64,000 nt of DNA from an uncultured bacterium. GTDB taxonomy: Bacteria > Desulfobacterota_D > UBA1144 > Nemesobacterales > UBA2774. Of this stretch, positions 6,962-30,538 are shown one piece after another; positions within the stretch are counted from its first letter, which is position 1, and every line of letters starts with the position of its first letter. The notes beneath the pieces were generated by a model that was not told the DNA's origin, did no database searches, and saw only the letters and a list, made by a program, of their open reading frames with translations. The stretch is taken from NCBI GenBank assembly GCA_963705505.1, contig CAVPJU010000006.1:608001-672000 (forward strand), written 5' to 3'. Both the position numbers and the translations under genes were made by a program.

Positions 6962-8089
6962 ATGAACTGGAAGATAGAAGGGCTGAAAAGGTTAGACGGA
7001 GTCCTTGGAAGAATCTCGTGCTCCGTCTCAAAATTAATTGTCAGCCCCAGGAAAAAGACGAGTGAAGGTGCCCTGAAGATACTCGTTATAAGACCGGGCG
7101 GGATCGGCGATGCGGTCCTTCTATACCCGGCTCTGGCTGAGCTGCGGAATCATTTCCCGGACGCTGTGATTGATATTCTGGCCGAGAAGAGAAATGCCGG
7201 AATTCTCACCGGCTGTCCATACATTACCACGCTATTTCAATACGATAAGCGTCCTCACGAGACTCTGTACGGAGTGATGAAAGAGGGCTACGACATAGTT
7301 ATCGACACCGAGCAGTGGCACAGACTCACTGCGGCTCTCTCATATCTGACACGCGCCCCGGTCCGCGCAGGTTTTGCCACGAACGAAAGGGCCCGGCTTT
7401 ACAGCGCTCCGGTTCCCTACAGCCACGAAGATTACGAGGCGTACAGTTTTCTCAATCTGGTATCGGCGGTAACGGGTAAAAAGTACGAGTTCGATAAGGA
7501 GAGACCCTTTATACCGCTCGACCGCAGTTCGTACGACGGGATTAGTTCAGCTATTTCGGATTTCAGGAGAGACAAAAAGGCCGTCGTCGGATTATTTGCG
7601 GGCGCTACGGTTCGTGAAAGAAGGTGGGGCGTAAATAAGTTCGCGGAGCTTGCGGCGGAATTGTCACGGGAGCATATAGGAGTGGTAATAGTGGGCGGGG
7701 AGACGGACAAAAGCGATTCTGAAATATTTCAAAAAGCGGACACTAACGGATTCCTTTTGGACTGCATTGGGAGAACTACGCTAAGGGAAACAGCCGCCCT
7801 CATTTCAGGGCTGGACCTGTTTGTGTCAGGCGATACGGGACTCATGCACGTTGCATACGGCGTCGGCACGCCCACGGTGTCCCTCTTCGGCGCCGGTATA
7901 CAGAGGAAATGGGCGCCGGCCGGGGGGGATCATATAGCTATTAACAAGAATGTTCCCTGCAGCCCCTGCACGAAGTTCGGATATACGCCGAAGTGCCCTT
8001 ATGACGTAAGGTGCCTCTCCGGTATAACTGTAGGGGAAGTAAAGGAATCGGTAGTGACGCTTCTGGCCCGGTCCTTAAACGGCCGGTAA
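6962..8089 (+). CDS. Glycosyltransferase family 9 (LPS heptosyltransferase-like)
   Basis: RPGGIGDAVL, DTGLMHVA, PTVSLFG, CSPC motifs. Confidence 0.88.
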   Translation: MNWKIEGLKRLDGVLGRISCSVSKLIVSPRKKTSEGALKILVIRPGGIGDAVLLYPALAELRNHFPDAVIDILAEKRNAGILTGCPYITTLFQYDKRPHETLYGVMKEGYDIVIDTEQWHRLTAALSYLTRAPVRAGFATNERARLYSAPVPYSHEDYEAYSFLNLVSAVTGKKYEFDKERPFIPLDRSSYDGISSAISDFRRDKKAVVGLFAGATVRERRWGVNKFAELAAELSREHIGVVIVGGETDKSDSEIFQKADTNGFLLDCIGRTTLRETAALISGLDLFVSGDTGLMHVAYGVGTPTVSLFGAGIQRKWAPAGGDHIAINKNVPCSPCTKFGYTPKCPYDVRCLSGITVGEVKESVVTLLARSLNGR

Positions 8090-8123
8090 TGAAGAAGTGT
8101 TAGCCGATATTTAATCCCTGAGT

Positions 8124-9005
8124 TCAAACACCCTTATCTTCGAGTCCCGGAGGAAGTTCTCCGTAGTATGGGGAGCCCTCCTCATAAAGGGCCTTTATCT
8201 TGTCCCTGGGCATGTCCGGCATGTCTTCTTTAAGCCCGAACATCCTGCAAATATGCCTTAATTCCTCTTCCCTGCCGGGAAGCGGGTCCATCGGCTGTAT
8301 CATCTGTTTATTCGTGAGCTCCTGCTTAACGTTTGCGTCTTCCATGAGCGGGTTTCCGTATTTATTCAGGTGGAAGAGCCTGTCGAATCGTTTTCTGGGC
8401 CTCTGTCCCGGCGATTCCGCGGCATAGCCCACAGACATAAGCCATATAGGGACGATATTTTCCGGGACGCCGAGCACCTTGGGAAATTCCGCCGGTTTTC
8501 GGCCGGTAGCCAGCAGGCAGCAGCCCAGGCCTAATTCTGTTGCAGCCAGAAGGGCGTTGGCTATGGCTTGCCCGGCTTCGATCCTGAGCAAGTCTTCCGT
8601 TCTGTCCTTCGGAAAGCTCATGAGGCGCGGGTAAGTGACTTCCGTAAGGAGCTGATAAGTCCATCCGTGGGCGGCTGTTATTGCCCTTGCCGGAAACAGG
8701 ACTGCAAATGACTGGACCAGCTCCTGATACCAGGAATCGAGGTTTATCAGCCACGCTATGACTATCGGGGCCTGCCTCAGGTGAATCTCGTTGAATGGGG
8801 ACGCGCATTCGATGATCTTCTCGAATTCGTCTTTGGGATAGGTTCTTTTATCGATCACTATTGCTTCGGTCGAGTTGCAGTTACCCTGGCATGATGCATA
8901 ACGCGCAGCCTGAAGCATCGTCTGTATTTTCCAGTCCTCAACTTCTTTCCAGGGTTTATAAAAACGGATGCTCCTTCTGCTTCCTATCGCTTGCATTAGT
9001 TCCAT
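8124..9005 (-). CDS. Nitroreductase-family flavoprotein with C-terminal extension
   Basis: RRSIRFY, LAATELGLGCC, SVGYA, RPRK FMN-binding motifs; AAGGAGG RBS. Confidence 0.85.
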   Translation of the reverse strand: MELMQAIGSRRSIRFYKPWKEVEDWKIQTMLQAARYASCQGNCNSTEAIVIDKRTYPKDEFEKIIECASPFNEIHLRQAPIVIAWLINLDSWYQELVQSFAVLFPARAITAAHGWTYQLLTEVTYPRLMSFPKDRTEDLLRIEAGQAIANALLAATELGLGCCLLATGRKPAEFPKVLGVPENIVPIWLMSVGYAAESPGQRPRKRFDRLFHLNKYGNPLMEDANVKQELTNKQMIQPMDPLPGREEELRHICRMFGLKEDMPDMPRDKIKALYEEGSPYYGELPPGLEDKGV

Positions 9006-20803: not shown

Positions 20804-22060
20804 TTGCGTGTCGAAATCGAAAGTATTGCATTTGGCGGAAGCGGTATTGCTAAAAAGGACGGCAAGGTCTTTTTCGTAAAGGGCGGCCTCCCTCACGACA
20901 TACTCGATATAAAAATAGTAAATGATAAAGGTAGTTATGCCGAAGCCGTAATCGAGGCGATTGTGGAGCCCTCGGGGGAAAGGGTCGAGCCTCCGTGCCC
21001 CGTATTCGGTCTCTGCGGCGGGTGTCAGTTCCAGAACCTGAGATATTCGGCGCAGCTCAGGGAGAAGGAGAACGTACTGAGGGAAACGGTTGAAAGGATA
21101 GGGGGTTTCAGGGATGTCCGTATAGATACTACCATCCCTTCCCCTTCCGAGTACGGGTATAGGAGCCGCACCCTTCTTTCCGCCTGGTATTTTTCCGGGG
21201 GCTGGCATACAGGGTATTTTCAGGAGAAGAGCCGGAACACGGTAAAAGTCGTTTCGTGTCCCATTACCGATAGATGGATCAACGGTGCGATCTCCAGGCT
21301 GTCAGACGTTTTATCATCGATAGGAGACCCGCGTTATCCGCTGGAAAAAATATACATGTCTTCTGACGGAACGAGCGCTTATATTACGCTTGTGCCATAT
21401 TTCAGGAGCGGACCCGCCTCTCTCGGAGCGCTCGTAAGGCACCTCCGGAGGTTTGAGGAGACCAAAAACGTCTCGGTGATCGGGAATAAAGAGGTTCAAT
21501 TCGAGTTCTCGCATTCGGGTTACAGATTTTTGACGTCCCCTTCCGTGTTTACACAGTCGAATACCCCTGTAAACGAGGCTATTATCGATACTGTCCTCAG
21601 CTGGTCGGAATTAAATGGGACGGAAACAGTACTGGACCTCTACTCAGGGATCGGCAATTTCTCGATCCCGCTCGCTAAGGGTTCGAAACAGGTAATTTCC
21701 GTAGAGATAAACAAAAGGGCGGCCGGATTCGCACAAAAAAACGCGGAATTGAACGGGCTTCAAAATATAATTTTTCACAATCTATCATGTGAAGAATATT
21801 TACCGGGTCATAATATGAGCACCCAGCCGGTAGATATAGCGGTGCTCGACCCTCCGAGGGAGGGGGCGAAAGGCGCGGTTGCGGAGATTACGCGCTTATC
21901 GCCTCGAAAAATTATTTACGTATCCTGTGACCCGGCGACTTTAGGACGGGATTTAAAGATGTTCGGGGACTCGGGTTATGAGCTTGCCGGGATAAGGCCG
22001 TTCGATATGTTCCCCCAGACCTATCACATAGAATCGGCCTCACTTTTGGTCAGATCCTGA
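20804..22060 (+). CDS. rlmD: 23S rRNA (uracil-C5)-methyltransferase with TRAM domain
   Basis: CPVFGLCGGCQ, DLYSGIGNF, LDPPREG, YVSCDPATL, DMFPQTYHIE. Confidence 0.9.
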   Translation: MRVEIESIAFGGSGIAKKDGKVFFVKGGLPHDILDIKIVNDKGSYAEAVIEAIVEPSGERVEPPCPVFGLCGGCQFQNLRYSAQLREKENVLRETVERIGGFRDVRIDTTIPSPSEYGYRSRTLLSAWYFSGGWHTGYFQEKSRNTVKVVSCPITDRWINGAISRLSDVLSSIGDPRYPLEKIYMSSDGTSAYITLVPYFRSGPASLGALVRHLRRFEETKNVSVIGNKEVQFEFSHSGYRFLTSPSVFTQSNTPVNEAIIDTVLSWSELNGTETVLDLYSGIGNFSIPLAKGSKQVISVEINKRAAGFAQKNAELNGLQNIIFHNLSCEEYLPGHNMSTQPVDIAVLDPPREGAKGAVAEITRLSPRKIIYVSCDPATLGRDLKMFGDSGYELAGIRPFDMFPQTYHIESASLLVRS

Positions 22061-22104
22061 TGCTTTTAACCGGGCTCAGAGCGGCGATAGATATTCAAAC
22101 TGTT

Positions 22105-22893
22105 TTACATCCGGTTGATTCTTGAAGGCTTGGTTATTTCCGAATCACCGTCTTCTCTGCTTTCCTCTCTCCCCCCGTTATTAAATGCGCCGTTGATCAG
22201 ATCGTAAACGGATCTCGCCAGATCCTTTCTTGAGGCCATTGATTGAGGGTCGATTTTATCGAGCAGCATTAATTCCACATCTATGGATTTAACCGGCAGC
22301 AGCTTGAACAGGTGATCGAAAAATTTCATGTCCCCGTAATAATGAACCAGGTCTCTGTTCTTTTCGGTGATCTCTTCTCCGTCGATGCTCCTGTATTTGA
22401 TGCATAGGGGTAAAATTTCCACGCCGGCTTTTTCGGCAATGCTTAACAAGGGGGTTTTAAATGGCAGGACCTGATCCCCGTTTGAAGTCGTCCCCTCGGG
22501 AAAAAGGGCCACATTGATCCCCATACTTAAAATCTCGGAAATCGATTCTATCTCGTTCCTGAGTCCCGATCTGTTCCTCCTCTCAACGAAGAACCCTCCG
22601 CTGAGCTCCGTGGCCTTACCGAGAAGGAACGAGCCTTTTACCTCATCCACGCTCGCTATAAAGGACGCTGGAAAGATCGAGGATATTACGAAGACATCCA
22701 GGTACGAGAGGTGGTTCGACAGGATCAGGAAATTTGTTTCGCCGCGGAGACCGCTTCCCCGGCTCTTCGGATGGACCTTGATGCCTAAGACCTTGATCAA
22801 GAGGACTGCGTGAAAGGCCATTGCCCTCGTGGACCAGTTTAATTTCCTTTTTCTATCTCTTGCTATGGTTCGAAGGACGGTGGTAACAGCCAT
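22105..22893 (-). CDS. PlsC-family acyltransferase, OlsA-like; natural start probably 22946, out of frame across an A9 tract
   Basis: NHLSYLD and FPEGT motifs; lies directly downstream of the olsB-like gene. Confidence 0.85.
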   Translation of the reverse strand: MAVTTVLRTIARDRKRKLNWSTRAMAFHAVLLIKVLGIKVHPKSRGSGLRGETNFLILSNHLSYLDVFVISSIFPASFIASVDEVKGSFLLGKATELSGGFFVERRNRSGLRNEIESISEILSMGINVALFPEGTTSNGDQVLPFKTPLLSIAEKAGVEILPLCIKYRSIDGEEITEKNRDLVHYYGDMKFFDHLFKLLPVKSIDVELMLLDKIDPQSMASRKDLARSVYDLINGAFNNGGREESREDGDSEITKPSRINRM

Positions 22894-22938
22894 ATAGGAT
22901 GCGACTACGCAAAAAAAAAGATGAGTTTTACATATTTT

Positions 22939-23799
22939 CTAATCATTCGATGCCTTGTATCTTTTTTCAAAGGATTTGGAAAGAACCTCGAGGTCGAGGA
23001 CCGTAAAGAAATCTGCGCATTTGAATTTTTTGTCGAGCGCCGGCTCTCCGCAAATTACCGATCCCGCTTTTAAGTAGCTCTTGAGAAGGGGAGGGATGAA
23101 ATCCTCGATCGATTCCGTCTTGATCGCGAACTTATCAAAAGCGCCTAAATAGTAGTCGAGCTCCTTGATCCTGTGATTTTCTTTAGGAAAAACCCTGAAG
23201 TTCTCGGGGGACAGGTAGAGCTCTTTTATATATTTGTAAATAAGACTGATTTCGACGATATTTGTAGTGCCGATACTTGAACACCCGAAGAGATATTTTG
23301 CATTGATCTTCCTGAAATATTCGGATAACCCTTTCCACAGAAGGGCTATCCCTATACCGTTCCTGTAATCCCTGTGGACGCACGCTCTCCCCAGTTCGAG
23401 CTTAATGCCCTCGGCGTTTTTAACCTGGTCGATCGCAAACTCGGTCTCCGAATAAAATTTGTCCGAAAAAGTAGAGGAGATAAATCTGTACGTCCCTACA
23501 ACCGTGTTGTGCTTTTTGTCCAGAATGATTAAGTGGTCGCAAAGAGAGTCGAACTTGTCAATATCGGTCCTGGAAAAGTTATCTTTATTGAGTGTTTCCT
23601 TGTAAAAGACCTCGTACCTGAGGTTCAAGGCTTTTTCGAGCTCGAAAATGTTTTCAACCGTTTTGATCACGAACTTGTTGCTTTCAATCAAAAGAGGAAC
23701 CTTTGGCTTAAACTGTCTTAACTTCCAGCGGAAAGCTCTTCTCAGAACGTTTGAAGAGGTAACCGTATTTGTTAGAGACATCACTTTTTTTGCCAGCAT
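22939..23799 (-). CDS. GNAT-fold N-acyl amino acid synthase, OlsB-like
   Basis: LRYEVF, DKFD..CDHL, VGTYR, ELGRACVHRDYR, PPLLKSYL...ICGEPALD. Confidence 0.85.
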   Translation of the reverse strand: MLAKKVMSLTNTVTSSNVLRRAFRWKLRQFKPKVPLLIESNKFVIKTVENIFELEKALNLRYEVFYKETLNKDNFSRTDIDKFDSLCDHLIILDKKHNTVVGTYRFISSTFSDKFYSETEFAIDQVKNAEGIKLELGRACVHRDYRNGIGIALLWKGLSEYFRKINAKYLFGCSSIGTTNIVEISLIYKYIKELYLSPENFRVFPKENHRIKELDYYLGAFDKFAIKTESIEDFIPPLLKSYLKAGSVICGEPALDKKFKCADFFTVLDLEVLSKSFEKRYKASND

Positions 23800-23827
23800 G
23801 CATATCTCCGATTTGTGTGTTAACTGT

Positions 23828-23892
23828 TTAATACCACTTTAATGTTTAAACCGTATTAAGCATCTATGAATTCTATGTTTATAAAATGTATC
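23828..23892 (-). promoter_or_regulatory. Pho-box-like 11-bp direct-repeat array upstream of the olsB-like gene
   Basis: Hexamers start at + strand 23843, 23854, 23865, 23876, 23887 (minus strand TAAACA, TTAATA, TTCATA, TAAACA, GATACA); weak -10 (TATTAA) 9 bp downstream. Confidence 0.6.
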
Positions 23893-23976
23893 AATTATAT
23901 CAAATAAATAGGCATAAAGTCCAGTTATGGCAGCCGACCGAAAATGAATAGTATATTCGGTTTTTGAACTTTCGCT

Positions 23977-24019
23977 TTAATACATTTTTAATATTCCCTT
24001 AACGACAGTGATTTACAAT
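23977..24019 (+). promoter_or_regulatory. Pho-box-like promoter
   Basis: TTAATA-N5-TTAATA-N5-TTAACG-N9-TACAAT. Confidence 0.7.
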
Positions 24020-24410
24020 GCATATCGCAAACGGGAAAGAGTCATGAAATGTACGAAAAATAGTTTTATCTGCCGTGCTTGGAATAACTGTTAGTATCGA
24101 ATATAATTGGATTTTTAAGAACGGACGGGTTCTCGCGCCGGACTAAACCGTTTCGGATTTAAATAAAATGCGGACCAGGCACGGCTATATTGAAATGTTG
24201 AAAAAAGATAGAGTGTGCGGCGCTAGGTCATTGGCGGGTCCGCAAGTCAATTTTATAAGCCTGCGGGAATGGCTGAGGCCCGGATGTGCGCCGGACCCGG
24301 CGGGGTGATATACTCTTTAGGAGTACGGAATTGCGCCGCGGTATAGTAGAATACCGGATGACGCCTTGTTTGGATGAATTTCTCGCGGGCTAGTAACAAA
24401 TGAGCTGATA

Positions 24411-25472
24411 ATGAAAGTATTGCTCGGAATACAAGGTACGGGAAATGGTCATATCTCCCGGTCAAGAGAGCTGTTGAAGTATCTTCTAAAGCGTGTCGAT
24501 GTGGACGTGCTCGTGAGCGGCTACCATCATGAGGTCGATCCCGGATTCGAAGTCAAATATAAGCTCCCGGGCCTGGGATTCACGTTCGGAAAACGGGGAG
24601 GGATCGATTACTGGAATTCTATCAGAAACTTCAGCCCGTATAAATTGCTCTCGGATATATATAAGATTCCAGTCGACAAATATGATCTTGTCGTCAGCGA
24701 TTTTGAGCCTGTCAGCGCCTGGTCCTCGAAGTTAAAGGGGGCTCCCTGTGTTTCTATCTCTCACCAGGCATCATTCCTGTCTCCGAATATACCGAGACCG
24801 CCGCAAAAAAACCGTGTCCAGGAGCTCATAATCAAATGGTATGCCCCCTCACCGGCCCATATCGGACTCCATTTTCAGGAATACGACGATTTTATTTTTA
24901 CGCCGATAATAAGGGAGGAAATAAGACATACCGATGTGAAAAATAACGGGCACTATACGGTATATCTGCCGTCTTACGATTACAGGTTTCTGTCCGCCGT
25001 ATTAAAGAAAATAGACGTAAGGTGGGAAGTGTTCTCAAAACATCACAAGGGGGAGCCGTACAAGGACTCGAACGTCACCGTTTACCCGGTAAACAACGGG
25101 GATTTCGTGAGAAGCCTGTCGACTTGCGAGGGCATATTGTGCAATGCCGGATTCGAAACGCCCGCAGAAACACTTTACCTCGGGAAGAAACTCATGGTTA
25201 TTCCGATGAAGAGACAGTACGAGCAGCAGTGTAATGCCGAAGCCCTCGATAGGCTGGGTATACCTGTAGTCAGGGGGATGCATAACGGATTTGAGAATAT
25301 TCTTAGCGACTGGATCAACTCAACTTTTGTCTATAACGCTAACTACAAAAACAATCTGCCCTTAATTGTCGAAAGAATACTAGACAGCTCTTCTAAAGCC
25401 GATGTGTTGAATGATTATATTTCTGATCCGGATTTAAATAAAGATGGGGTAGGCTTGGGGCCCACCAAATAA
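24411..25472 (+). CDS. GT-B glycosyltransferase (MJ1255/GT28-like)
   Basis: GIQGTGNGHISRS, SDFEP, NAGFETPAE, PMKRQYEQQCNA. Confidence 0.85.
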   Translation: MKVLLGIQGTGNGHISRSRELLKYLLKRVDVDVLVSGYHHEVDPGFEVKYKLPGLGFTFGKRGGIDYWNSIRNFSPYKLLSDIYKIPVDKYDLVVSDFEPVSAWSSKLKGAPCVSISHQASFLSPNIPRPPQKNRVQELIIKWYAPSPAHIGLHFQEYDDFIFTPIIREEIRHTDVKNNGHYTVYLPSYDYRFLSAVLKKIDVRWEVFSKHHKGEPYKDSNVTVYPVNNGDFVRSLSTCEGILCNAGFETPAETLYLGKKLMVIPMKRQYEQQCNAEALDRLGIPVVRGMHNGFENILSDWINSTFVYNANYKNNLPLIVERILDSSSKADVLNDYISDPDLNKDGVGLGPTK

Positions 25473-25545
25473 TACCGCAGTCCGCTTTTAGCTTTTTCTA
25501 TCCGATCTTTTACTCGGTCCCCGGCGATTTATATTTCTGAGACTG

Positions 25546-26121
25546 TTACTGTTTACTTGTAAGATAATTTGATACCAGAGACAGACTTACCAGCTTCTCC
25601 GCTATGTTCTTATATAATTCCCCGATCTTTAGTAAATTTATCACCTCGTCTATATTGTGCCAATCCTGAATCAGGTATGTGAGGAGGACCCTCTTGTGCT
25701 GGTCTTCCAATGATTCGATAAACTCATAGTCCTCTCCCAATCTCTTGGTATCGAACTTCTCATACCAGTTTTTGCATTCCACCAGCGTTATTATGTGCGG
25801 GAGCAATATATCGAGCATTTGTTTTGTGTCGATCTCGGGACATATGGGCTTTCTCGATTTCAGGTTTTCCATCAGCTGCACGGAATACGTGAATTTGTGG
25901 ATAATTGAAAGTATCAGCTTGAGTGCCGTAATATAGTAGACATCGTGTTCTTTCTTGCTATGCTCGATCGCCGTCTCGAGCTTGAGCTTAAGATGAATGA
26001 GGTCGTTTCTCAGGGAAATCAACTCATCTTCGCTTCTGGTATTGATATAATTCTTCGATTTCGAAATGAGTATTTCGAACTTGCCCTCTATTAAAGATCT
26101 GTCGAAATTTTCAGTTTCCAT
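25546..26121 (-). CDS. Divergent PhoU-like helical protein
   Basis: Helical-looking sequence; C-terminal DYEFIESLEDQHKRVLLTYLIQDWHNIDEVINLLKIGELYKNIAE follows the pattern of the PhoU second repeat; strong Pho-box-like promoter. Confidence 0.55.
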   Translation of the reverse strand: METENFDRSLIEGKFEILISKSKNYINTRSEDELISLRNDLIHLKLKLETAIEHSKKEHDVYYITALKLILSIIHKFTYSVQLMENLKSRKPICPEIDTKQMLDILLPHIITLVECKNWYEKFDTKRLGEDYEFIESLEDQHKRVLLTYLIQDWHNIDEVINLLKIGELYKNIAEKLVSLSLVSNYLTSKQ

Positions 26122-26161
26122 ATTCACCCCTCTTTAGTGTACGTCGGAATTACGTGGGGGT

Positions 26162-26204
26162 AGTGTATATGGGTTTTGTTAAGATTGTGTGAAGATCGTG
26201 TTAA
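26162..26204 (-). promoter_or_regulatory. Pho-box-like promoter of the phoU-like gene
   Basis: Minus strand TTAACA-N5-TTCACA-N5-TTAACA-N9-TACACT. Confidence 0.8.
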
Positions 26205-26289
26205 GTATTCGGGCTCGAAGACTCGATAACGTTTTGCATGCAACCCGCTTTAAAATGGAATCGCATGTGATATAGAGTCCGCTCAGAGA

Positions 26290-26326
26290 ATAAAAAGGGT
26301 GAGTCCTGCGGGTCGGGACTCACCCT
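26290..26326 (-). terminator. Rho-independent terminator
   Basis: Perfect 11-bp stem AGGGTGAGTCC/GGACTCACCCT followed by a T run on the minus strand. Confidence 0.85.
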
Positions 26327-26374
26327 GATGTTTTACATTGCCCGGTGAGAGAGACGGGCAATCAAATAGCAGAT
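26290..26374 (-). ncRNA. Candidate sRNA, about 85 nt
   Basis: Own repeat-array promoter, a perfect 8-bp hairpin with UCUCUCUCAC loop, and an intrinsic terminator; no ORF seen. Confidence 0.5.
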
Positions 26375-26380
26375 GATGTA

Positions 26381-26434
26381 ATACTAGCACTTCATTATTA
26401 AGATAATTTTATTTGCGAGTTAAGGCATCGTTAA
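26381..26434 (-). promoter_or_regulatory. Pho-box-like promoter of the candidate sRNA
   Basis: Minus strand TTAACG-N5-TTAACT-N5-(ATAAAA)-N5-TTAATA-N9-TAGTAT. Confidence 0.6.
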
Positions 26435-26513
26435 CCCGGTATAGGGAAGACATAATTGGTTTCCGCGAAATGCTCGACCGGGGTAGGGAAGCGCAAGGGA
26501 CGGATGTATGGCC

Positions 26514-27500
26514 TCACATGAGGTGGTTTACAAACTGGTCTGCAATCGACTTCCAGCTCTGCGTTTCGGCATGTTTGAGCGCATTATTCGACAAGCCTTC
26601 AATATTCGCGAAAGCCCTTTCGATATTCTCTTCGAGGCTTTCCCCGATATATCCCGTCACCCCGTTCTGGATTATGTCGTTCGGGCTCGGGACATCGTAG
26701 GCGACAACGGGTAAACCGCAAGCCATAGCCTCGAGTATTACTAATCCGAATGTATCGAATTTACTCGGGAAAACGAATACCTGAGCCTGAGTGTAAATAT
26801 TTTTCAGCTGATTATGAGGCACGTACCCGGTGAACTCGACATCGGGATACCTGGCTTTGAGAGTCTTGAGATACGGTCCGTCTCCGACAAGTATTTTTCT
26901 GTATCCGCGTATCGCGCAAAAATCATCGAGATTTTTATCCTTGCTCACCCTGCCTACCGTAATGATGGTTTTCTCTTTGAATGGCGTTGTCCTGTCTCCG
27001 GGATTAAACAGGTGAGTGTCGACTCCCCTCCCCCAGACGATACAGTTACTGAGACCAAGCTGCCTGGCTATGCTTTTCGTCGTCACGAGGACTTTCTTAC
27101 TGCACCTGTGAAACCACCTTACATATAACCATGTGAGGAACGTGGGCACGCCGTAAAGTACCCAGCCGTAGTCGGCCAGTCTCGTGTGATAGGACGTATT
27201 GTAGTTGATTTTATTTTTTCTGCAGAACTGCCGCATGGCCAGGCCGAGGCTCCCCTCGGTGGCTATGTGCACTCTGTCCGGGAGATGCTGATCATAATGT
27301 TTACTCACGATGTGGGACGCATTTTTCAGTATAGGGATGTTTCCCTGGAGCTTTAGCGGCAGGTGCTCGGAGCCTTCTATGTAGGGATTCAGAACGGCTA
27401 CTTCATGATCCCTGCTGATCAGATTCGTGATATAGCTCCAGGTATGGACTACACCGTTTACCTGGGGGTGCCAAGCGTCCGTGACGAGCATTATTTTCAT
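26514..27500 (-). CDS. GT4 glycosyltransferase (Agt-like glycosyl/glucuronosyl-diacylglycerol synthase candidate)
   Basis: VTDAWHPQVNGVV, HIATEG.LG, SYHT, WGRGVD, FPSKFDTFGLVILEAMACGLPV. Confidence 0.85.
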   Translation of the reverse strand: MKIMLVTDAWHPQVNGVVHTWSYITNLISRDHEVAVLNPYIEGSEHLPLKLQGNIPILKNASHIVSKHYDQHLPDRVHIATEGSLGLAMRQFCRKNKINYNTSYHTRLADYGWVLYGVPTFLTWLYVRWFHRCSKKVLVTTKSIARQLGLSNCIVWGRGVDTHLFNPGDRTTPFKEKTIITVGRVSKDKNLDDFCAIRGYRKILVGDGPYLKTLKARYPDVEFTGYVPHNQLKNIYTQAQVFVFPSKFDTFGLVILEAMACGLPVVAYDVPSPNDIIQNGVTGYIGESLEENIERAFANIEGLSNNALKHAETQSWKSIADQFVNHLM

Positions 27501-27549
27501 TTTATCAGGCTCCCGTGATCTGCACTTAGGTTAAGGAACGTTTTTAGGT

Positions 27550-28188
27550 TCACAGCGCGTTGGTCAGATATAAAATAATTATGACGGTCGCCGCTCCGAG
27601 AAAACTGCCCGCGAGTGTCTGCGGAAATGTATGCCTTCCGAGACGTATACGGGACCATGCAATTACCGGTACTATGAGCGTAAGGGGGAGAACGCTTTCT
27701 CCGTATAAAGCCAGCGTCAGAAAAGCGAGCCCGGCTGCCGAAGTGCAGTGACCGCTTATCTTCCATCTGAGCGTGATGACAAAAACAAGAAGTATTTGAA
27801 TGAGGGCTGCCGCAGTCACTATGAGCATCAGTCTGGGCGCTCCTGCCATATACATAACAAGGAAGACAAGGGCAACGTACGCCAGTATTACGAACAACGG
27901 CTGAGCGCGCTCCTCTCTTATATTCATGTGGAAATCACTTACTTTTCCCCTGTGAACGAGCGTAAGGACGTAAACCGTAGGGGGTATTATGAGCAGGGCA
28001 ATGAAAATTAATATCCAGAAGAAGGTGGACTCACCTTGAGTCGCCAGCGCAGTTATGATTATGCATGAAAGCGCTATAAGCGGCGGGCTGAACAAGTTCG
28101 AGATTATGCGCGCCGACTTGTCACGCCAGTCGAGCGGAATGATTATCGAATCGGACGGCTGTTGATAGAGTTTCTTGTCAGTTTCCAT
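27550..28188 (-). CDS. PAP2-like integral membrane protein
   Basis: Multiple hydrophobic segments; KISGH and WSRIRLGRHT motifs. Confidence 0.7.
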   Translation of the reverse strand: METDKKLYQQPSDSIIIPLDWRDKSARIISNLFSPPLIALSCIIITALATQGESTFFWILIFIALLIIPPTVYVLTLVHRGKVSDFHMNIREERAQPLFVILAYVALVFLVMYMAGAPRLMLIVTAAALIQILLVFVITLRWKISGHCTSAAGLAFLTLALYGESVLPLTLIVPVIAWSRIRLGRHTFPQTLAGSFLGAATVIIILYLTNAL

Positions 28189-28912
28189 TTTGAAGCTCTC
28201 TGCTCGAATTATATTGGGACCAGTATCCCCAGTCGTAACTCTTCCACTTGTCCGGGATCAGGTTGAAGTATAATGCGCTGCACCTGGTAATCGAGTGGAG
28301 GGTCTTTCTTATTACACCTCTTTCGAGCCGTCTGTGGTCTCCGGCGTATACTACTAAATCGAATGTAAAGTACGGCCTGTATCCCATACGCTTTAAACGC
28401 CAGGCAAGCTCCGAATCCTCATTACATGTAAGATCGAGGTCGAATCCCCCGGACATCTCATAAGCCTCCCTCTTGATAATGCAATTTGAACCCGAAACAG
28501 CAGGTACCCCGAGTAAGTGAATGAGACGCTGCCCGTAAGCAAACCATTTATAATAGGCACGAAAGCGGTCCAGGGAAAGCTTAGGTCCGTAAATCAGGTC
28601 GTATTCTTCGAGTTTCGCGATATTCCTGAAGTATGCCGCAGAAAAAACTATATCCGCGTCGGTAAAGAGCAGCCAGGGGGTTTTTGCAGCGTCGGCTCCT
28701 ATTCGCCGGGCTTCGGTGACAGTTCCGGGATGCCTGATAAGGTTAGTATAGTCCGGTCTCAGTGAAGAAACAATATCCGGCGTCGAATCTTCGCTTGCAT
28801 CAACAACAATGAGGTGAATGTCTTCGGGTACTGATTTTAGAAAATGACGTATATTATGAGACTCGTTTCTCGTGGGGAGGATTATAGTTAAGTCACCCGG
28901 TTTTATTCCCAT
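28178..28912 (-). CDS. GT2 glycosyltransferase
   Basis: ILPTRNE, IVVD, FTDAD, GGFD, NED. Start placed at 28912 because the ATG at 28921 lies only 2 nt after the predicted -10 box. Confidence 0.85.
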   Translation of the reverse strand: MGIKPGDLTIILPTRNESHNIRHFLKSVPEDIHLIVVDASEDSTPDIVSSLRPDYTNLIRHPGTVTEARRIGADAAKTPWLLFTDADIVFSAAYFRNIAKLEEYDLIYGPKLSLDRFRAYYKWFAYGQRLIHLLGVPAVSGSNCIIKREAYEMSGGFDLDLTCNEDSELAWRLKRMGYRPYFTFDLVVYAGDHRRLERGVIRKTLHSITRCSALYFNLIPDKWKSYDWGYWSQYNSSRELQNGN

Positions 28913-28922
28913 AACAATCATT

Positions 28923-28976
28923 ATTTTAATTACTATCTATTAAGCGGTGTTGAATTTCACGTTAATTTACCGTTAA
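28923..28976 (-). promoter_or_regulatory. Pho-box-like promoter of the GT2-PAP2-GT4 operon
   Basis: Minus strand TTAACG-N5-TTAACG-N5-TTCAAC-N5-TTAATA-N9-TAAAAT. Confidence 0.7.
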
Positions 28977-29075
28977 AAATCATTAAATATTCGAAACCGG
29001 CTCTAAATATCTATTGCAATAATTATAGATCATATACGGGCGTCGGAGAATTACTACGTAATCAACCCTATTTCC

Positions 29076-30260
29076 TCAATTTTTTGAAACGCTGCCCTTT
29101 TCAAAACTTATTTTTAACACCCCTTCTTCGAGATTCGCTTTCTCCACGTTCAGTTTCGCGAGGAAACTGGGCAGGAATATATTCCTCCTCTGATTCTCGA
29201 TCTGTATTGTGAGCTCCTCGCCCACCTGATGAAGCTTTACTTCTTCCTTGCTGACGAAGGGCAGTTTTAACATGAGGTGATAGACACCTTTTTCTTTAAC
29301 GACATCGTAAGGTTTTCCTTTATAAAAGATATCCACGGGGTCTTTCTTTGCGAACAGCGTGCTGCCGAATTCGAGGAGGGCGTCTATTCCGAGAACCTCC
29401 TTGGAAAACAGGGGCGCTTCGTGCAGAGGTATTGAGCTGAAAAGCTCTCCTACATCTTTTCTGTAATTCTCCTGGAATTTCTGCCATTCCTTAAAATAGG
29501 GATGGTCGAGTTCTTTCGGCATCGCCCTGTTCACTATAACGGAATCCACGTTATACCCGTAAAGATTAAGATAGGTATAAGCCCTTTGCGTTTCTTTTAT
29601 GACCATCTTTTCGAGATTAAGCACAAGTCTTATCGATGTAATCTCGGGGTTCGAAAATATCTTGTGAATTGAATTCAGTTTTTCGAAGAGATCCTCGATT
29701 GCAATGTACGTTTCTTCCTCCGGCAATGGCATATCGGATACGACTTTGACGGCGGGACGTACTACCTTCAATAGTCTCCTCTCAATCGGAAAGACCTTTA
29801 CTATCCACCACCTCGCCACATCCGGAAGGGAAAGGAGCCTTAAGGTCTCTCCGGTAGGAGCGCTGTCCACGATGATTACATCGTATTGTCCTTCCTTAAA
29901 GTGGCTGTAGACCCATAGAAAGCATGAAACTTCCTCCATGCCCGGAAAGATGCTGAATTCTTCCGCCAGAACGTCATCCACCTTCATCCAGTTGAACAGG
30001 GACTGAATGTACCCCGTTAATTTGCCCCAGTATTTATCGACCGAATAAAAAACATCGATCTCCTGTGCATAGAGATTCTTCATGATTTTTTTTGGCTCGG
30101 GTCCTATTTCCATGTCGAAAGAATCTCTCAAGCTGTGTGCCGGGTCCGTGGAGACGACTAGTGTTTTGTATCCCCGTTTTGCCGCCTGAAGCGCAGTTGC
30201 AGCCGCAGCCGTCGTCTTTCCCACCCCGCCCTTGCCGGTATATAAAATTATCCTTGTCAT
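29076..30260 (-). CDS. ArsA/Get3-family ATPase with C-terminal HSP20-like domain
   Basis: GKGGVGKTT, STDPAHSL, DSAPTGETLRLL; beta-rich C-terminal tail. Confidence 0.9.
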   Translation of the reverse strand: MTRIILYTGKGGVGKTTAAAATALQAAKRGYKTLVVSTDPAHSLRDSFDMEIGPEPKKIMKNLYAQEIDVFYSVDKYWGKLTGYIQSLFNWMKVDDVLAEEFSIFPGMEEVSCFLWVYSHFKEGQYDVIIVDSAPTGETLRLLSLPDVARWWIVKVFPIERRLLKVVRPAVKVVSDMPLPEEETYIAIEDLFEKLNSIHKIFSNPEITSIRLVLNLEKMVIKETQRAYTYLNLYGYNVDSVIVNRAMPKELDHPYFKEWQKFQENYRKDVGELFSSIPLHEAPLFSKEVLGIDALLEFGSTLFAKKDPVDIFYKGKPYDVVKEKGVYHLMLKLPFVSKEEVKLHQVGEELTIQIENQRRNIFLPSFLAKLNVEKANLEEGVLKISFEKGSVSKN

Positions 30261-30397
30261 ATAAGTCCGTTAGTCCCGCCGTATTTCAATTTTCAGAGGG
30301 TTTGATTCACTTATAATAGTACCTTACTCTTTATCTTGACATAAATTGCGCGGAGCTTAATATATTAATTCCGTATCTTTTATTCGAGGTAATAGAA

Positions 30398-30538
30398 ATG
30401 GCCGAAAAGGGTAATACCGAAAATCAGGGGAATTCTTACGACGCAATTTTTGCCTTACTGGCTTTCGCCTTAATTCTGGGTACCGCGCTACTCGCCATAG
30501 GCGGGATTTATTACAACTTTATCAACCCGGTTTTTTGA
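30398..30538 (+). CDS. Small single-pass membrane protein, 46 aa (below ORF-track cutoff)
   Basis: MAEKGNTENQGNSYDAIFALLAFALILGTALLAIGGIYYNFINPVF; GAGGT RBS; TTGACA...TATATT upstream. Confidence 0.7.
   Translation: MAEKGNTENQGNSYDAIFALLAFALILGTALLAIGGIYYNFINPVF

Follow-up and report, generated by a model that had tools for sequence, protein, structure and literature searches.

A gene cluster behind five Pho-type promoters as the probable membrane-lipid branch of the Pho regulon in a Candidatus Dadabacteria genome

The window examined here is a stretch of 64,000 nucleotides (G000:C6:608001-672000; contig CAVPJU010000006.1) from the genome of an organism labelled by habitat as an uncultured wetland bacterium. 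The genome amounts to 2.88 Mb in 10 contigs, is 93.6% complete and, judging from its relatives, belongs to Candidatus Dadabacteria / Thermodesulfobacteriota. Within the window lies a compact set of genes for two acyltransferases resembling OlsB and OlsA, a glycosyltransferase (GT) of the MJ1255/VC2487 type, a protein termed p193, a candidate small RNA and a GT2-PAP2-GT4 operon, which together probably make up that branch of the organism's Pho regulon that concerns membrane lipids. The underlying principle, a PhoB-controlled swap of phospholipids for ornithine lipids and glycosyl-diacylglycerols, is already established; what is new is a regulon model for an uncultured phylum, with five Pho promoters within 7 kb and four unstudied components. 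Coordinates are those of the window unless prefixed C1, C2, C6 or L.

The case begins with five promoters in 23828-28976, each consisting of two to four TTAAYR-type hexamers in a strict 11-bp register, the last of which ends 9 bp before a -10-like hexamer. The earlier note on this DNA had described five such promoters with the same period and gap, and all are present as described:

26162..26204, minus strand: P1, TTAACA (26204-26199), TTCACA (26193-26188), TTAACA (26182-26177), N9, TACACT (26167-26162), before p193
26381..26434, minus strand: P2, TTAACG (26434-26429), TTAACT (26423-26418), ATAAAA (26412-26407), TTAATA (26401-26396), N9, TAGTAT (26386-26381), before the small RNA
23977..24019, plus strand: P3, TTAATA (23977-82), TTAATA (23988-93), TTAACG (23999-24004), N9, TACAAT (24014-19), toward the MJ1255-type GT
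28923..28976, minus strand: P4, TTAACG (28976-71), TTAACG (28965-60), TTCAAC (28954-49), TTAATA (28943-38), N9, TAAAAT (28928-23), before GT2-PAP2-GT4
23828..23881, minus strand: P5, TAAACA (23881-76), TTCATA (23870-65), TTAATA (23859-54), TAAACA (23848-43), N9, TATTAA (23833-28), before olsB-olsA

P3 attains the top composite score genome-wide (31.7 bits), and P1, with the spacing TTAACA-N5-TTCACA-N5-TTAACA-N9-TACACT, scores 31.1 bits. P4 reaches 25.4 bits and P2, in which the third of the four hexamers (ATAAAA) is weak, 24.5 bits. The promoter of the olsB-like gene, P5, had been called weaker, and it is the weakest of the five at 18.9 bits with a poor -10 hexamer (TATTAA), yet it holds four degenerate repeats at the 11-bp period. 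The sequence analysis itself establishes the motif with its period and spacing, the occurrence of this motif at pst, at the porin gene and at the PhoX-like and PlcP-like genes, and its persistence in relatives, as well as the assignments by family, fold and motif and the structure of the RNA.

These scores come from a matrix built from 14 hexamers and the four -10 boxes of P1-P4, with which both strands of the whole genome were scanned. The null expectation was taken from 10 simulated genomes, generated by a first-order Markov model in 2-kb blocks and hence matched locally in composition, with the cluster masked. Composite sites outside the cluster numbered 9, 4, 3, 2 and 1 at thresholds of at least 20, 22, 24, 26 and 28 bits, against simulated means of 0.5, 0.1, 0, 0 and 0; the three sites of at least 24 bits were set against none in each of the 10 simulated genomes. 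When hexamer-only triples of at least 20 bits were counted outside the cluster, a period of 11 yielded 8 loci and each of the ten other periods between 6 and 16 yielded 0-3. The gap to the -10 box was assessed in 11 promoters over 4-14 bp with a generic sigma-70 -10 matrix that does not derive from the sites of this genome, and the best -10 was located at exactly 9 bp in 10 of them (4/5 in the cluster and 6/6 elsewhere), the exception being P5. For three of the outside promoters the last repeat was chosen by hand, a choice that shifts the outcome only by 11-bp steps.

The promoter pattern thus exceeds chance. That the hexamer arrays are mere products of AT-rich intergenic DNA, with no regulatory role, can hardly be entertained, even granting that TTAA-rich words are common in AT-rich spacers, that matches of 18-20 bits include doubtful loci, and that a genome-wide count with the weak trained -10 matrix gave no discrimination between gaps. 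The counts of sites and periods, the gap of exactly 9 bp and the persistence of the hexamers among relatives while the spacers drift (described below) leave this explanation strongly disfavoured.

A genome scan with a matrix made from the cluster promoters had been proposed in the earlier note as a check, and its top matches outside the cluster are the pstS operon, a porin gene beside phoBR and a metallophosphoesterase gene, with a weaker one at a PhoX-like gene. These sites, together with a further promoter beside pstS, are as follows:

C6:557030-557083, 28.7 bits: pst site, directly upstream of pstS-pstC-pstA, after which come pstB and the genes of a low-molecular-weight phosphatase and of a canonical PhoU
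C6:447555-447608, 27.7 bits: porin site, before a Porin_O_P gene that diverges from phoB and the gene of a kinase of the PhoR/PnpS type
C6:445017-445059, 24.4 bits: metallophosphoesterase site, upstream of a Metallophos_2 phosphoesterase
C2:11502-11544, 20.2 bits: PhoX site, 40 nt before the ATG of a PhoX-like gene
C6:557268-557321 (L001:5269-5322): four-repeat Pho-type promoter before a 193-aa open reading frame (ORF) divergent from pstS

A further motif site precedes a major facilitator superfamily transporter (Sugar_tr). The reciprocal exercise, in which the matrix was trained on six outside promoters only, returned P3 at rank 2 and P1 at rank 3 genome-wide, the best of the loci not used in training, with P4, P2 and P5 at ranks 11, 18 and 22. 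The kinase encoded next to phoB scores 409 bits on PnpS (cut-off 400). Taken together, these results support the view that the motif behaves as the predicted Pho box of this organism. Apart from these sites, a hexamer triple of 19.7-20.4 bits was noticed at L003:4814-4873 (G000:C6:546813-546872), upstream of the ergothioneine synthesis genes egtB-egtD; it may be a sign that a thiol is under phosphate control, or else a chance match.

OmpR-family regulators generally bind direct repeats that are about 10-11 bp apart, and the repeats might accordingly be bound by another member of that family or answer a signal other than phosphate. PhoB itself (L002:7695-8384) finds its best NCBIfam match in TIGR02154 with 242 bits, under the cut-off of 296, and its binding here is a prediction only. 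This alternative is nonetheless very improbable when it is set against the identity of the best outside sites, namely pstSCAB-phoU, the phosphate-selective porin by phoBR and the PhoX-like and PlcP-like genes, the last of which is described further below.

The sites may be compared with known PHO boxes. According to PMC4415409, PHO boxes are 11-nt direct repeats with a species-specific consensus, and the boxes of E. coli, Bacillus and Streptomyces share with the present ones the 11-bp period, the tandem direct repeats, the conserved core with variable spacers and the position just upstream of the -10 box. The differences here lie in the TTAAYR core, the two to four units per promoter and the fixed 9-bp gap to the -10 box. 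Among previously described consensus sequences, TTAAYR is closest to TT(A/T/C)ACA of Bacillus PhoP and PyTTAAPyPy(T/A) of cyanobacterial SphR.

Conservation was followed in 23 loci found by a search with the MJ1255-type GT, of which 18 belong to Dadabacteria-like metagenome-assembled genomes (MAGs) and five to Bacteroidota. Of the 18 Dadabacteria-like loci, 11 have all seven cluster genes in an unchanged order; two more are cut by contig ends, and the remaining five hold subsets of the genes, with PAP2 and the MJ1255-type GT present in 18/18. Since the order queA-rlmD-olsA-olsB-GT-p193-GT4-PAP2-GT2-arsA is syntenic in the Dadabacteria relatives, the set is to be regarded as a conserved chromosomal cluster rather than a mobile element, and the word "island" in the earlier note does not fit it. 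Split tblastn matches in loci L014, L016 and L030 amount to apparent frameshifts in queA, olsA, GT4 or GT2, which look like MAG assembly errors rather than true gene loss.

The boxes are kept along with the gene order, as a synteny check in relatives, also proposed beforehand, has established. A P1 triple of at least 17 bits occurs in 14 of the 16 relatives' loci that hold p193, the other two (L025 and L031) showing two hexamers by eye, and P4 reaches at least 17 bits in 16/16 relatives' loci that extend to its region, where it stands upstream of GT2, or of PAP2 if GT2 is missing. P2, P3 and P5 were found in 8/8 close relatives (P3 at 17 bits or more). Among the more distant loci L021-L026, whose proteins are about 65-70% identical, the 5-bp spacers have changed around hexamers and an N9 gap that have not, as exemplified by a P1 of the form TTAACA-tattc-TTAACA-cattc-TTAACA; the four-repeat layout of P5 is likewise kept there with other spacers. 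P2 and the small RNA are both absent from L021-L026, in which the spacer measures only 126-145 bp. Constant hexamers with drifting spacers are the pattern expected of a protein-binding site, which these arrays would then be.

The genes and the other features that the promoters would serve are bordered by housekeeping genes, namely queA and rlmD at one end and the gene of an ArsA/GET3-type ATPase at the opposite end. The transcription units comprise the olsB-like gene followed by the olsA-like gene (minus strand), the MJ1255-type GT (plus), p193 (minus) and the GT2-PAP2-GT4 operon (minus):

22105..22893, minus strand: OlsA-like lyso-aminolipid O-acyltransferase of the PlsC type (Pfam PF01553, 76.7 bits)
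22939..23799, minus strand: OlsB-like N-acyltransferase (Pfam PF13444 GNAT domain, 95.7 bits, cut-off 22.4)
23894..23923, minus strand: predicted sigma-70-type promoter TGGACT, 18 bp, TATAAT with an upstream TG, located upstream of the olsB Pho boxes (10/12 consensus matches)
24079..24107, plus strand: predicted sigma-70-type promoter TTGGAA, 17 bp, TATAAT, between P3 and the MJ1255-type GT, the best consensus match in the region
24411..25472, plus strand: MJ1255/VC2487-type GT-B glycosyltransferase (Pfam PF13528, 121 bits, cut-off 25)
25546..26121, minus strand: p193, a predicted PhoU-fold protein of 191 aa from the probable ATG at 26121 (longest ORF 193 aa from the GTG at 26127)
26292..26377, minus strand: small RNA candidate under predicted Pho control, about 83-86 nt long, downstream of P2
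26514..27500, minus strand: GT4 glycosyltransferase of the Agt/GTcp type, 328 aa, last gene of its operon (Pfam PF00534, PF13692, PF13439)
27550..28188, minus strand: PAP2-family integral membrane phosphatase (Pfam PF01569, 32 bits, cut-off 27.2, residues 144-210 only)
28178..28921, minus strand: small soluble GT2 glycosyltransferase, first gene of its operon (Pfam PF00535, 47.4 bits)

At the family level the acyltransferase calls of the earlier note hold, on the strength of PF13444, PF01553, an HX4D motif and operon adjacency. The olsA-like gene lies 45 bp downstream of the olsB-like one, and the two are read as one operon; the OlsA-like translation contains the HX4D motif (NHLSYLD) as well as an FPEGT motif. 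By its domain, the OlsB-like protein would catalyse the first step in the synthesis of ornithine lipid or another amino lipid. Because both proteins have the right domains but fall far below the equivalog cut-offs (given below), they are called amino-lipid synthases, with ornithine as the most probable head group. The reported OlsB/OlsA pathway of S. meliloti, Burkholderia and Pseudomonas, with a Pho box upstream of olsB, is alike in being a two-gene acyltransferase unit behind Pho boxes. The present unit differs in its order of olsB then olsA in one operon, in its sub-cut-off scores and in the sigma-70-type promoter upstream of the boxes. Precedent for olsB genes or PlcP-glycosyltransferase operons behind Pho boxes is reportedly offered by PMC7814305 and PMC12971839.

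The sigma-70-type promoters accompany Pho boxes in other genomes as well: the sequence block at 23894-23923 is kept in relatives, and the TTGGAA-17-TATAAT promoter is present in 12/12 loci examined, followed by a leader of variable sequence and 125-300 nt in length (300 nt in the window). Such pairing of sigma-70-type and Pho promoters suggests basal plus phosphate-induced expression; the role of the promoter predicted at 23894-23923 is one that we infer only. Shorter-leader versions of P3 occur directly before the GT in L025 (about 60 nt from its start) and before a PlcP-GT pair in L029. A riboswitch in the GT leader was considered and set aside, the leader being too variable in length and sequence to suggest one.

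The remaining assignments, namely the MJ1255-type GT, GT2, PAP2 and GT4, are likewise borne out at the family level by their Pfam matches. For GT4, a lipid substrate is indicated by motifs. PMC8231724 gives GRVAXEKN and FPSXTDTFG as UDP-sugar motifs of the GTcp/Agt enzymes, names the residues Gly16, His104, Asp256, Glu264 and Trp320, and describes an Asp in place of the usual GT4 Glu that cannot be changed to Glu and is specific to the diacylglycerol-dependent group. The window's GT4, of fitting size at 328 aa, shows GRVSKDKN and FPSKFDTFG, carries Asp249 where other GT4 enzymes have Glu, and has Gly16, His105, Glu257 and Trp316 at positions matching GTcp/Agt in a motif-level comparison. In that comparison His105 and Trp316 stand at the distances of the catalytic His104 and of Trp320, which together with Arg163 belongs to the acceptor side of the known enzymes. 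The protein is a candidate glucosyl- or glucuronosyl-diacylglycerol synthase.

The MJ1255-type GT is a candidate diacylglycerol glycosyltransferase by the company that it keeps. In L029 it comes immediately after the gene of a PlcP/LpxH-like metallophosphoesterase, with a Pho-type site in front, and in four of the five Bacteroidota loci it directly follows a PlcP-like gene (a 28%-identical homologue). This pairing echoes the plcP-glycosyltransferase operons described in PMC4796936 and PMC8528852. The Bacteroidota in question (Taibaiella and Edaphocola; L033-L036, about 7000-9000) carry the PlcP-like gene directly before an MJ1255-type GT of 45-48% identity, and three of these loci (L034-L036) have, just upstream, an AT-rich site that fits the hexamer matrix from Dadabacteria. 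A search of the literature on MJ1255, PF13528, Glyco_trans_1_3 and VC2487, judged by titles and the beginnings of abstracts, yielded nothing on lipids, and a PDB sequence search gave no match for this GT or for the PAP2 protein.

With respect to the source of diacylglycerol, the earlier note had stated that no PlcP-type phospholipase was present and had therefore turned to the PAP2 protein. The statement stands for the window and falls for the genome, in which a PlcP/LpxH-like metallophosphoesterase is encoded at C6:698498-699220 (L037:1498-2224), about 62 kb from the cluster; the only genome matches to the PlcP-like enzyme of L029 lie there, outside the window, at C6:698492-699152. Its promoter, TTAACA-N5-TTAAAC-N5-CTAAAA-N5-TTAAAT-N9-TATAAC, follows the same design as those of the cluster. 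The existence of this gene removes the premise of the argument that PAP2 must supply diacylglycerol. PAP2 may still contribute, a role favoured by its constant linkage to the GT: it is the most constant partner of the MJ1255-type GT (18/18 loci), always behind Pho boxes where that region is held. Its translation contains ISGH and SRX5H, with the catalytic C2 and C3 histidines, and the Asp after the C3 His is replaced by Gln.

Compared with the PlcP-Agt pathway under PhoB, known from Sinorhizobium, Agrobacterium (Atu2297), Phaeobacter MED193, SAR11 HTCC7211 (GTcp) and P. aeruginosa (PA3219/PA3218/PA0842), the predicted system is alike in having Pho-box promoters at a PlcP-type metallophosphoesterase and a GT4 enzyme, the latter with the GTcp/Agt motifs. 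It differs in that the PlcP-like gene stands apart from the cluster, at a distance of about 62 kb, that GT4 shares an operon with a small GT2 and PAP2, and that a second GT, of the MJ1255/VC2487 family, is the PlcP-linked one in related and Bacteroidota genomes.

An explanation of lesser probability accepts the Pho control and assigns a different substrate. Some members of the PAP2 family are phosphatases of lipid A or of undecaprenyl pyrophosphate, and the GT2-PAP2-GT4 operon, perhaps with the MJ1255-type GT, could then remodel the outer envelope, with PAP2 acting on lipid A or undecaprenyl pyrophosphate and the GTs on lipopolysaccharide or a polyprenyl carrier. Such a role is in keeping with the translational coupling of GT2 and PAP2, whose reading frames overlap by 11 nt, with the weak match of GT2 (E 7.8e-5) to its nearest solved relative 6yv7, which is a membrane GT2, and with the outer-membrane porins encoded in the genome. 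The explanation is considered unlikely on account of the Agt/GTcp motifs in GT4 together with its Asp-for-Glu change (PMC8231724), the pairing of the MJ1255-type GT with a PlcP-like phospholipase in three lineages, the length and translation of GT2 (244-247 aa), which reveal no evident ArnC-type membrane anchor, and the Pfam and NCBIfam scans, which found no GT-C transferase in the cluster. As for GT2 itself, no NCBIfam model passed its cut-off, and its neighbours in the Atlas are generic GT2 proteins of 230-280 aa.

A membrane-lipid branch of the Pho regulon accordingly remains the preferred reading, and several results weigh against it. On the regulatory side, to the sub-cut-off score of PhoB noted above is added that the upstream region of phoB holds no clear same-strand box, and that the best upstream scores of the three PPK2 genes are only 4.9, 8.2 and 12.9 bits, which leaves them without the motif. 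The expectation of matches at pstS, phoBR, phoA/phoX and ppk was hence realised at pstS and the PhoX-like gene, and beside phoBR at the divergent porin gene, but not clearly at phoB itself and not at the PPK2 genes. PhoA, PhoD and PPK1 were not found in the 93.6% complete genome, and that part of the regulon is invisible. Matches of 18-22 bits are found, too, before egtB-egtD, before the gene of a PAS histidine kinase and before others whose connection with phosphate is not evident; in this range some are expected by chance. The distance from P3 to the start of the MJ1255-type GT is 390 nt with the sigma-70-type promoter in between, which means that P3 would act on this gene via a 390-nt leader in this genus. 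Among public sequencing runs, no RNA run with the cluster was listed.

On the enzymatic side, the OlsA-like protein reaches 124.4 bits on its best NCBIfam model, NF052553 (lyso-ornithine lipid O-acyltransferase, cut-off 300), and the OlsB-like protein 138.7 against 350 on NF052554 and 129.1 against 320 on NF052555. The MJ1255-type GT similarly scores 159.6 bits on TIGR00661, under the family cut-off of 195.9, and the PAP2 translation has no clear C1 motif (KX6RP). In the assembly, a frameshift near L037:1918 breaks the PlcP-like gene into two reading frames. It is intact in eight of nine same-genus genomes, and the contigs of three of four public runs (90-99% alike, from other strains) have one base fewer at that position; contigs from other strains cannot tell a real frameshift from an assembly error.

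The gene described earlier as "PhoU-like" encodes p193, which matches no Pfam (including PF01895, even at E up to 10) or NCBIfam model and shows marginal pairwise similarity to the genome's own PhoU. Its family is tiny, with 24 relatives at E of 0.001 or below among 1.84 billion representatives. The description is upheld by other means: a profile of 17 p193 sequences matches the Aquifex PhoU 1t72 over positions 39-180 (E 1.7e-6), and an AlphaFold (AF2) model with six long helices (predicted local distance difference test score 84.3, predicted template modelling score 0.82) returned, in a Foldseek search of the PDB, PhoU or PhoU-like structures as all of its top 13 matches, at template modelling scores of 0.55-0.70. 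On this profile match and modelled fold, p193 is taken to be a divergent PhoU-fold protein. It resembles PhoU (PF01895) in its six helices forming two three-helix bundles, in the profile match and in its predicted phosphate-regulated expression, and differs in the missing PF01895 match, its shorter length (191 aa), its small family and its location in a lipid cluster rather than beside the transporter; a canonical PhoU already exists in the pst operon. That p193 serves in feedback or as an adaptor would be a guess. The 193-aa ORF divergent from pstS (L001:5410-5991; region G000:C6:557268-557990) has no Pfam or NCBIfam match either, and its candidacy as a p193 paralogue was rejected at a BLASTP E of 20.

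The candidate small RNA claimed in the earlier note is likewise substantiated, here by a conserved structure with compensatory changes. It begins with a conserved single-stranded 5' end, AUCUGCUAUUUGAUU. Next come a hairpin whose 10-nt loop is rich in C and U, a linker rich in A, and a terminator hairpin followed by a U run. The fold has a minimum free energy of -32.3 kcal/mol (z -4.98), with 0/200 shuffles as good, and compensatory changes were seen in 5 of 16 pairs across 11 aligned sequences. A covariance model found exactly one copy in each of five of the 41 genomes sampled from the order. All carriers belong to the window's family (4/8 of its other members), with 0/32 among genomes of other families. 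An Rfam scan of 21500-30500 at E up to 1 gave no match, and Hfq (PF17209) was not found in the 93.6% complete genome. No terminator lies between the GT4 stop codon and P2; therefore the RNA could also arise from the 3' end of the GT2-PAP2-GT4 operon.

Targets of this RNA were sought by computing duplexes against 7343 crude ORF starts. For the 5' seed, an enoyl-CoA hydratase gene came first with its ribosome-binding site (-16.9 kcal/mol, where the mean was -6.6 and the standard deviation 2.0), and matches of the loop region were unremarkable. The site (L045:2150-2195; G000:C1:103650-103695) contains a 14-nt complement to the 5' end of the RNA that is kept in 9/9 same-genus loci and is absent from four genomes of other genera that do not carry the RNA. 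Two more distant genomes with a homologue of the RNA lack the site as well (-4.3 and -6.6 kcal/mol), and the enoyl-CoA hydratase is therefore only a weak lead.

The start of the GT2 operon merits a separate remark. The first ATG comes 2 nt after the end of the P4 -10 box at 28923, and the ATG at 28912 is the likelier start, from which a nearly leaderless mRNA would follow. In both the GT2 operon (28912-28928) and the Metallophos_2 gene (L002:5056-5072), the likely ATG stands about 9-11 nt past the -10 box, and both mRNAs appear leaderless or nearly so.

A mechanism can be proposed in which PhoB as the binder, induction by phosphate limitation, the substrates and products of the enzymes and the parts played by the RNA and by the PhoU-like protein are what we infer. 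When phosphate is scarce, PhoR would phosphorylate PhoB, and dimers of PhoB~P would bind head-to-tail to the 11-bp direct-repeat units (TTAAYR plus five variable bases), which would replace the -35 region, end 9 bp before the -10 box and so recruit the sigma-70 holoenzyme. Switched on thereby would be olsB-olsA, for ornithine lipid or another acyloxyacyl amino lipid, the MJ1255-type GT, the GT2-PAP2-GT4 operon with its Agt/GTcp-type diacylglycerol glycosyltransferase, and the divergent PhoU-fold protein with the 83-86-nt small RNA. Diacylglycerol would be provided by the PlcP-like phospholipase C, whose gene, about 62 kb from the cluster, has a promoter of this type too, and possibly by dephosphorylation of phosphatidate by PAP2.

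More tentatively, and with rather less probability than the mechanism itself, a second layer of lipid control may be envisaged next to the known PlcP-Agt and OlsBA routes, in which the MJ1255-type GT is the true partner of PlcP, GT2-PAP2 diverts newly made phosphatidate via diacylglycerol to another glycolipid, and the small RNA and the PhoU-fold paralogue feed back on the system. If this were true, the MJ1255-type GTs would constitute a new family of lipid-renovation glycosyltransferases common to the Dadabacteria lineage and Bacteroidota.

The replacement of phospholipids by phosphorus-free lipids is a major bacterial saving of phosphorus and has been worked out mainly in Proteobacteria. The present cluster offers a complete and testable regulon model, with its consensus, promoter geometry and targets, for an uncultured phylum that is widespread in soil, wetland and sediment. 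It also brings to light four unstudied parts, namely a GT family that travels with PlcP in two phyla, the GT2-PAP2 pair, a small family of PhoU-fold proteins and a family-restricted small RNA under predicted Pho control. The defined motif may furthermore be used to read phosphate stress from the metatranscriptomes of soil, wetland and sediment.

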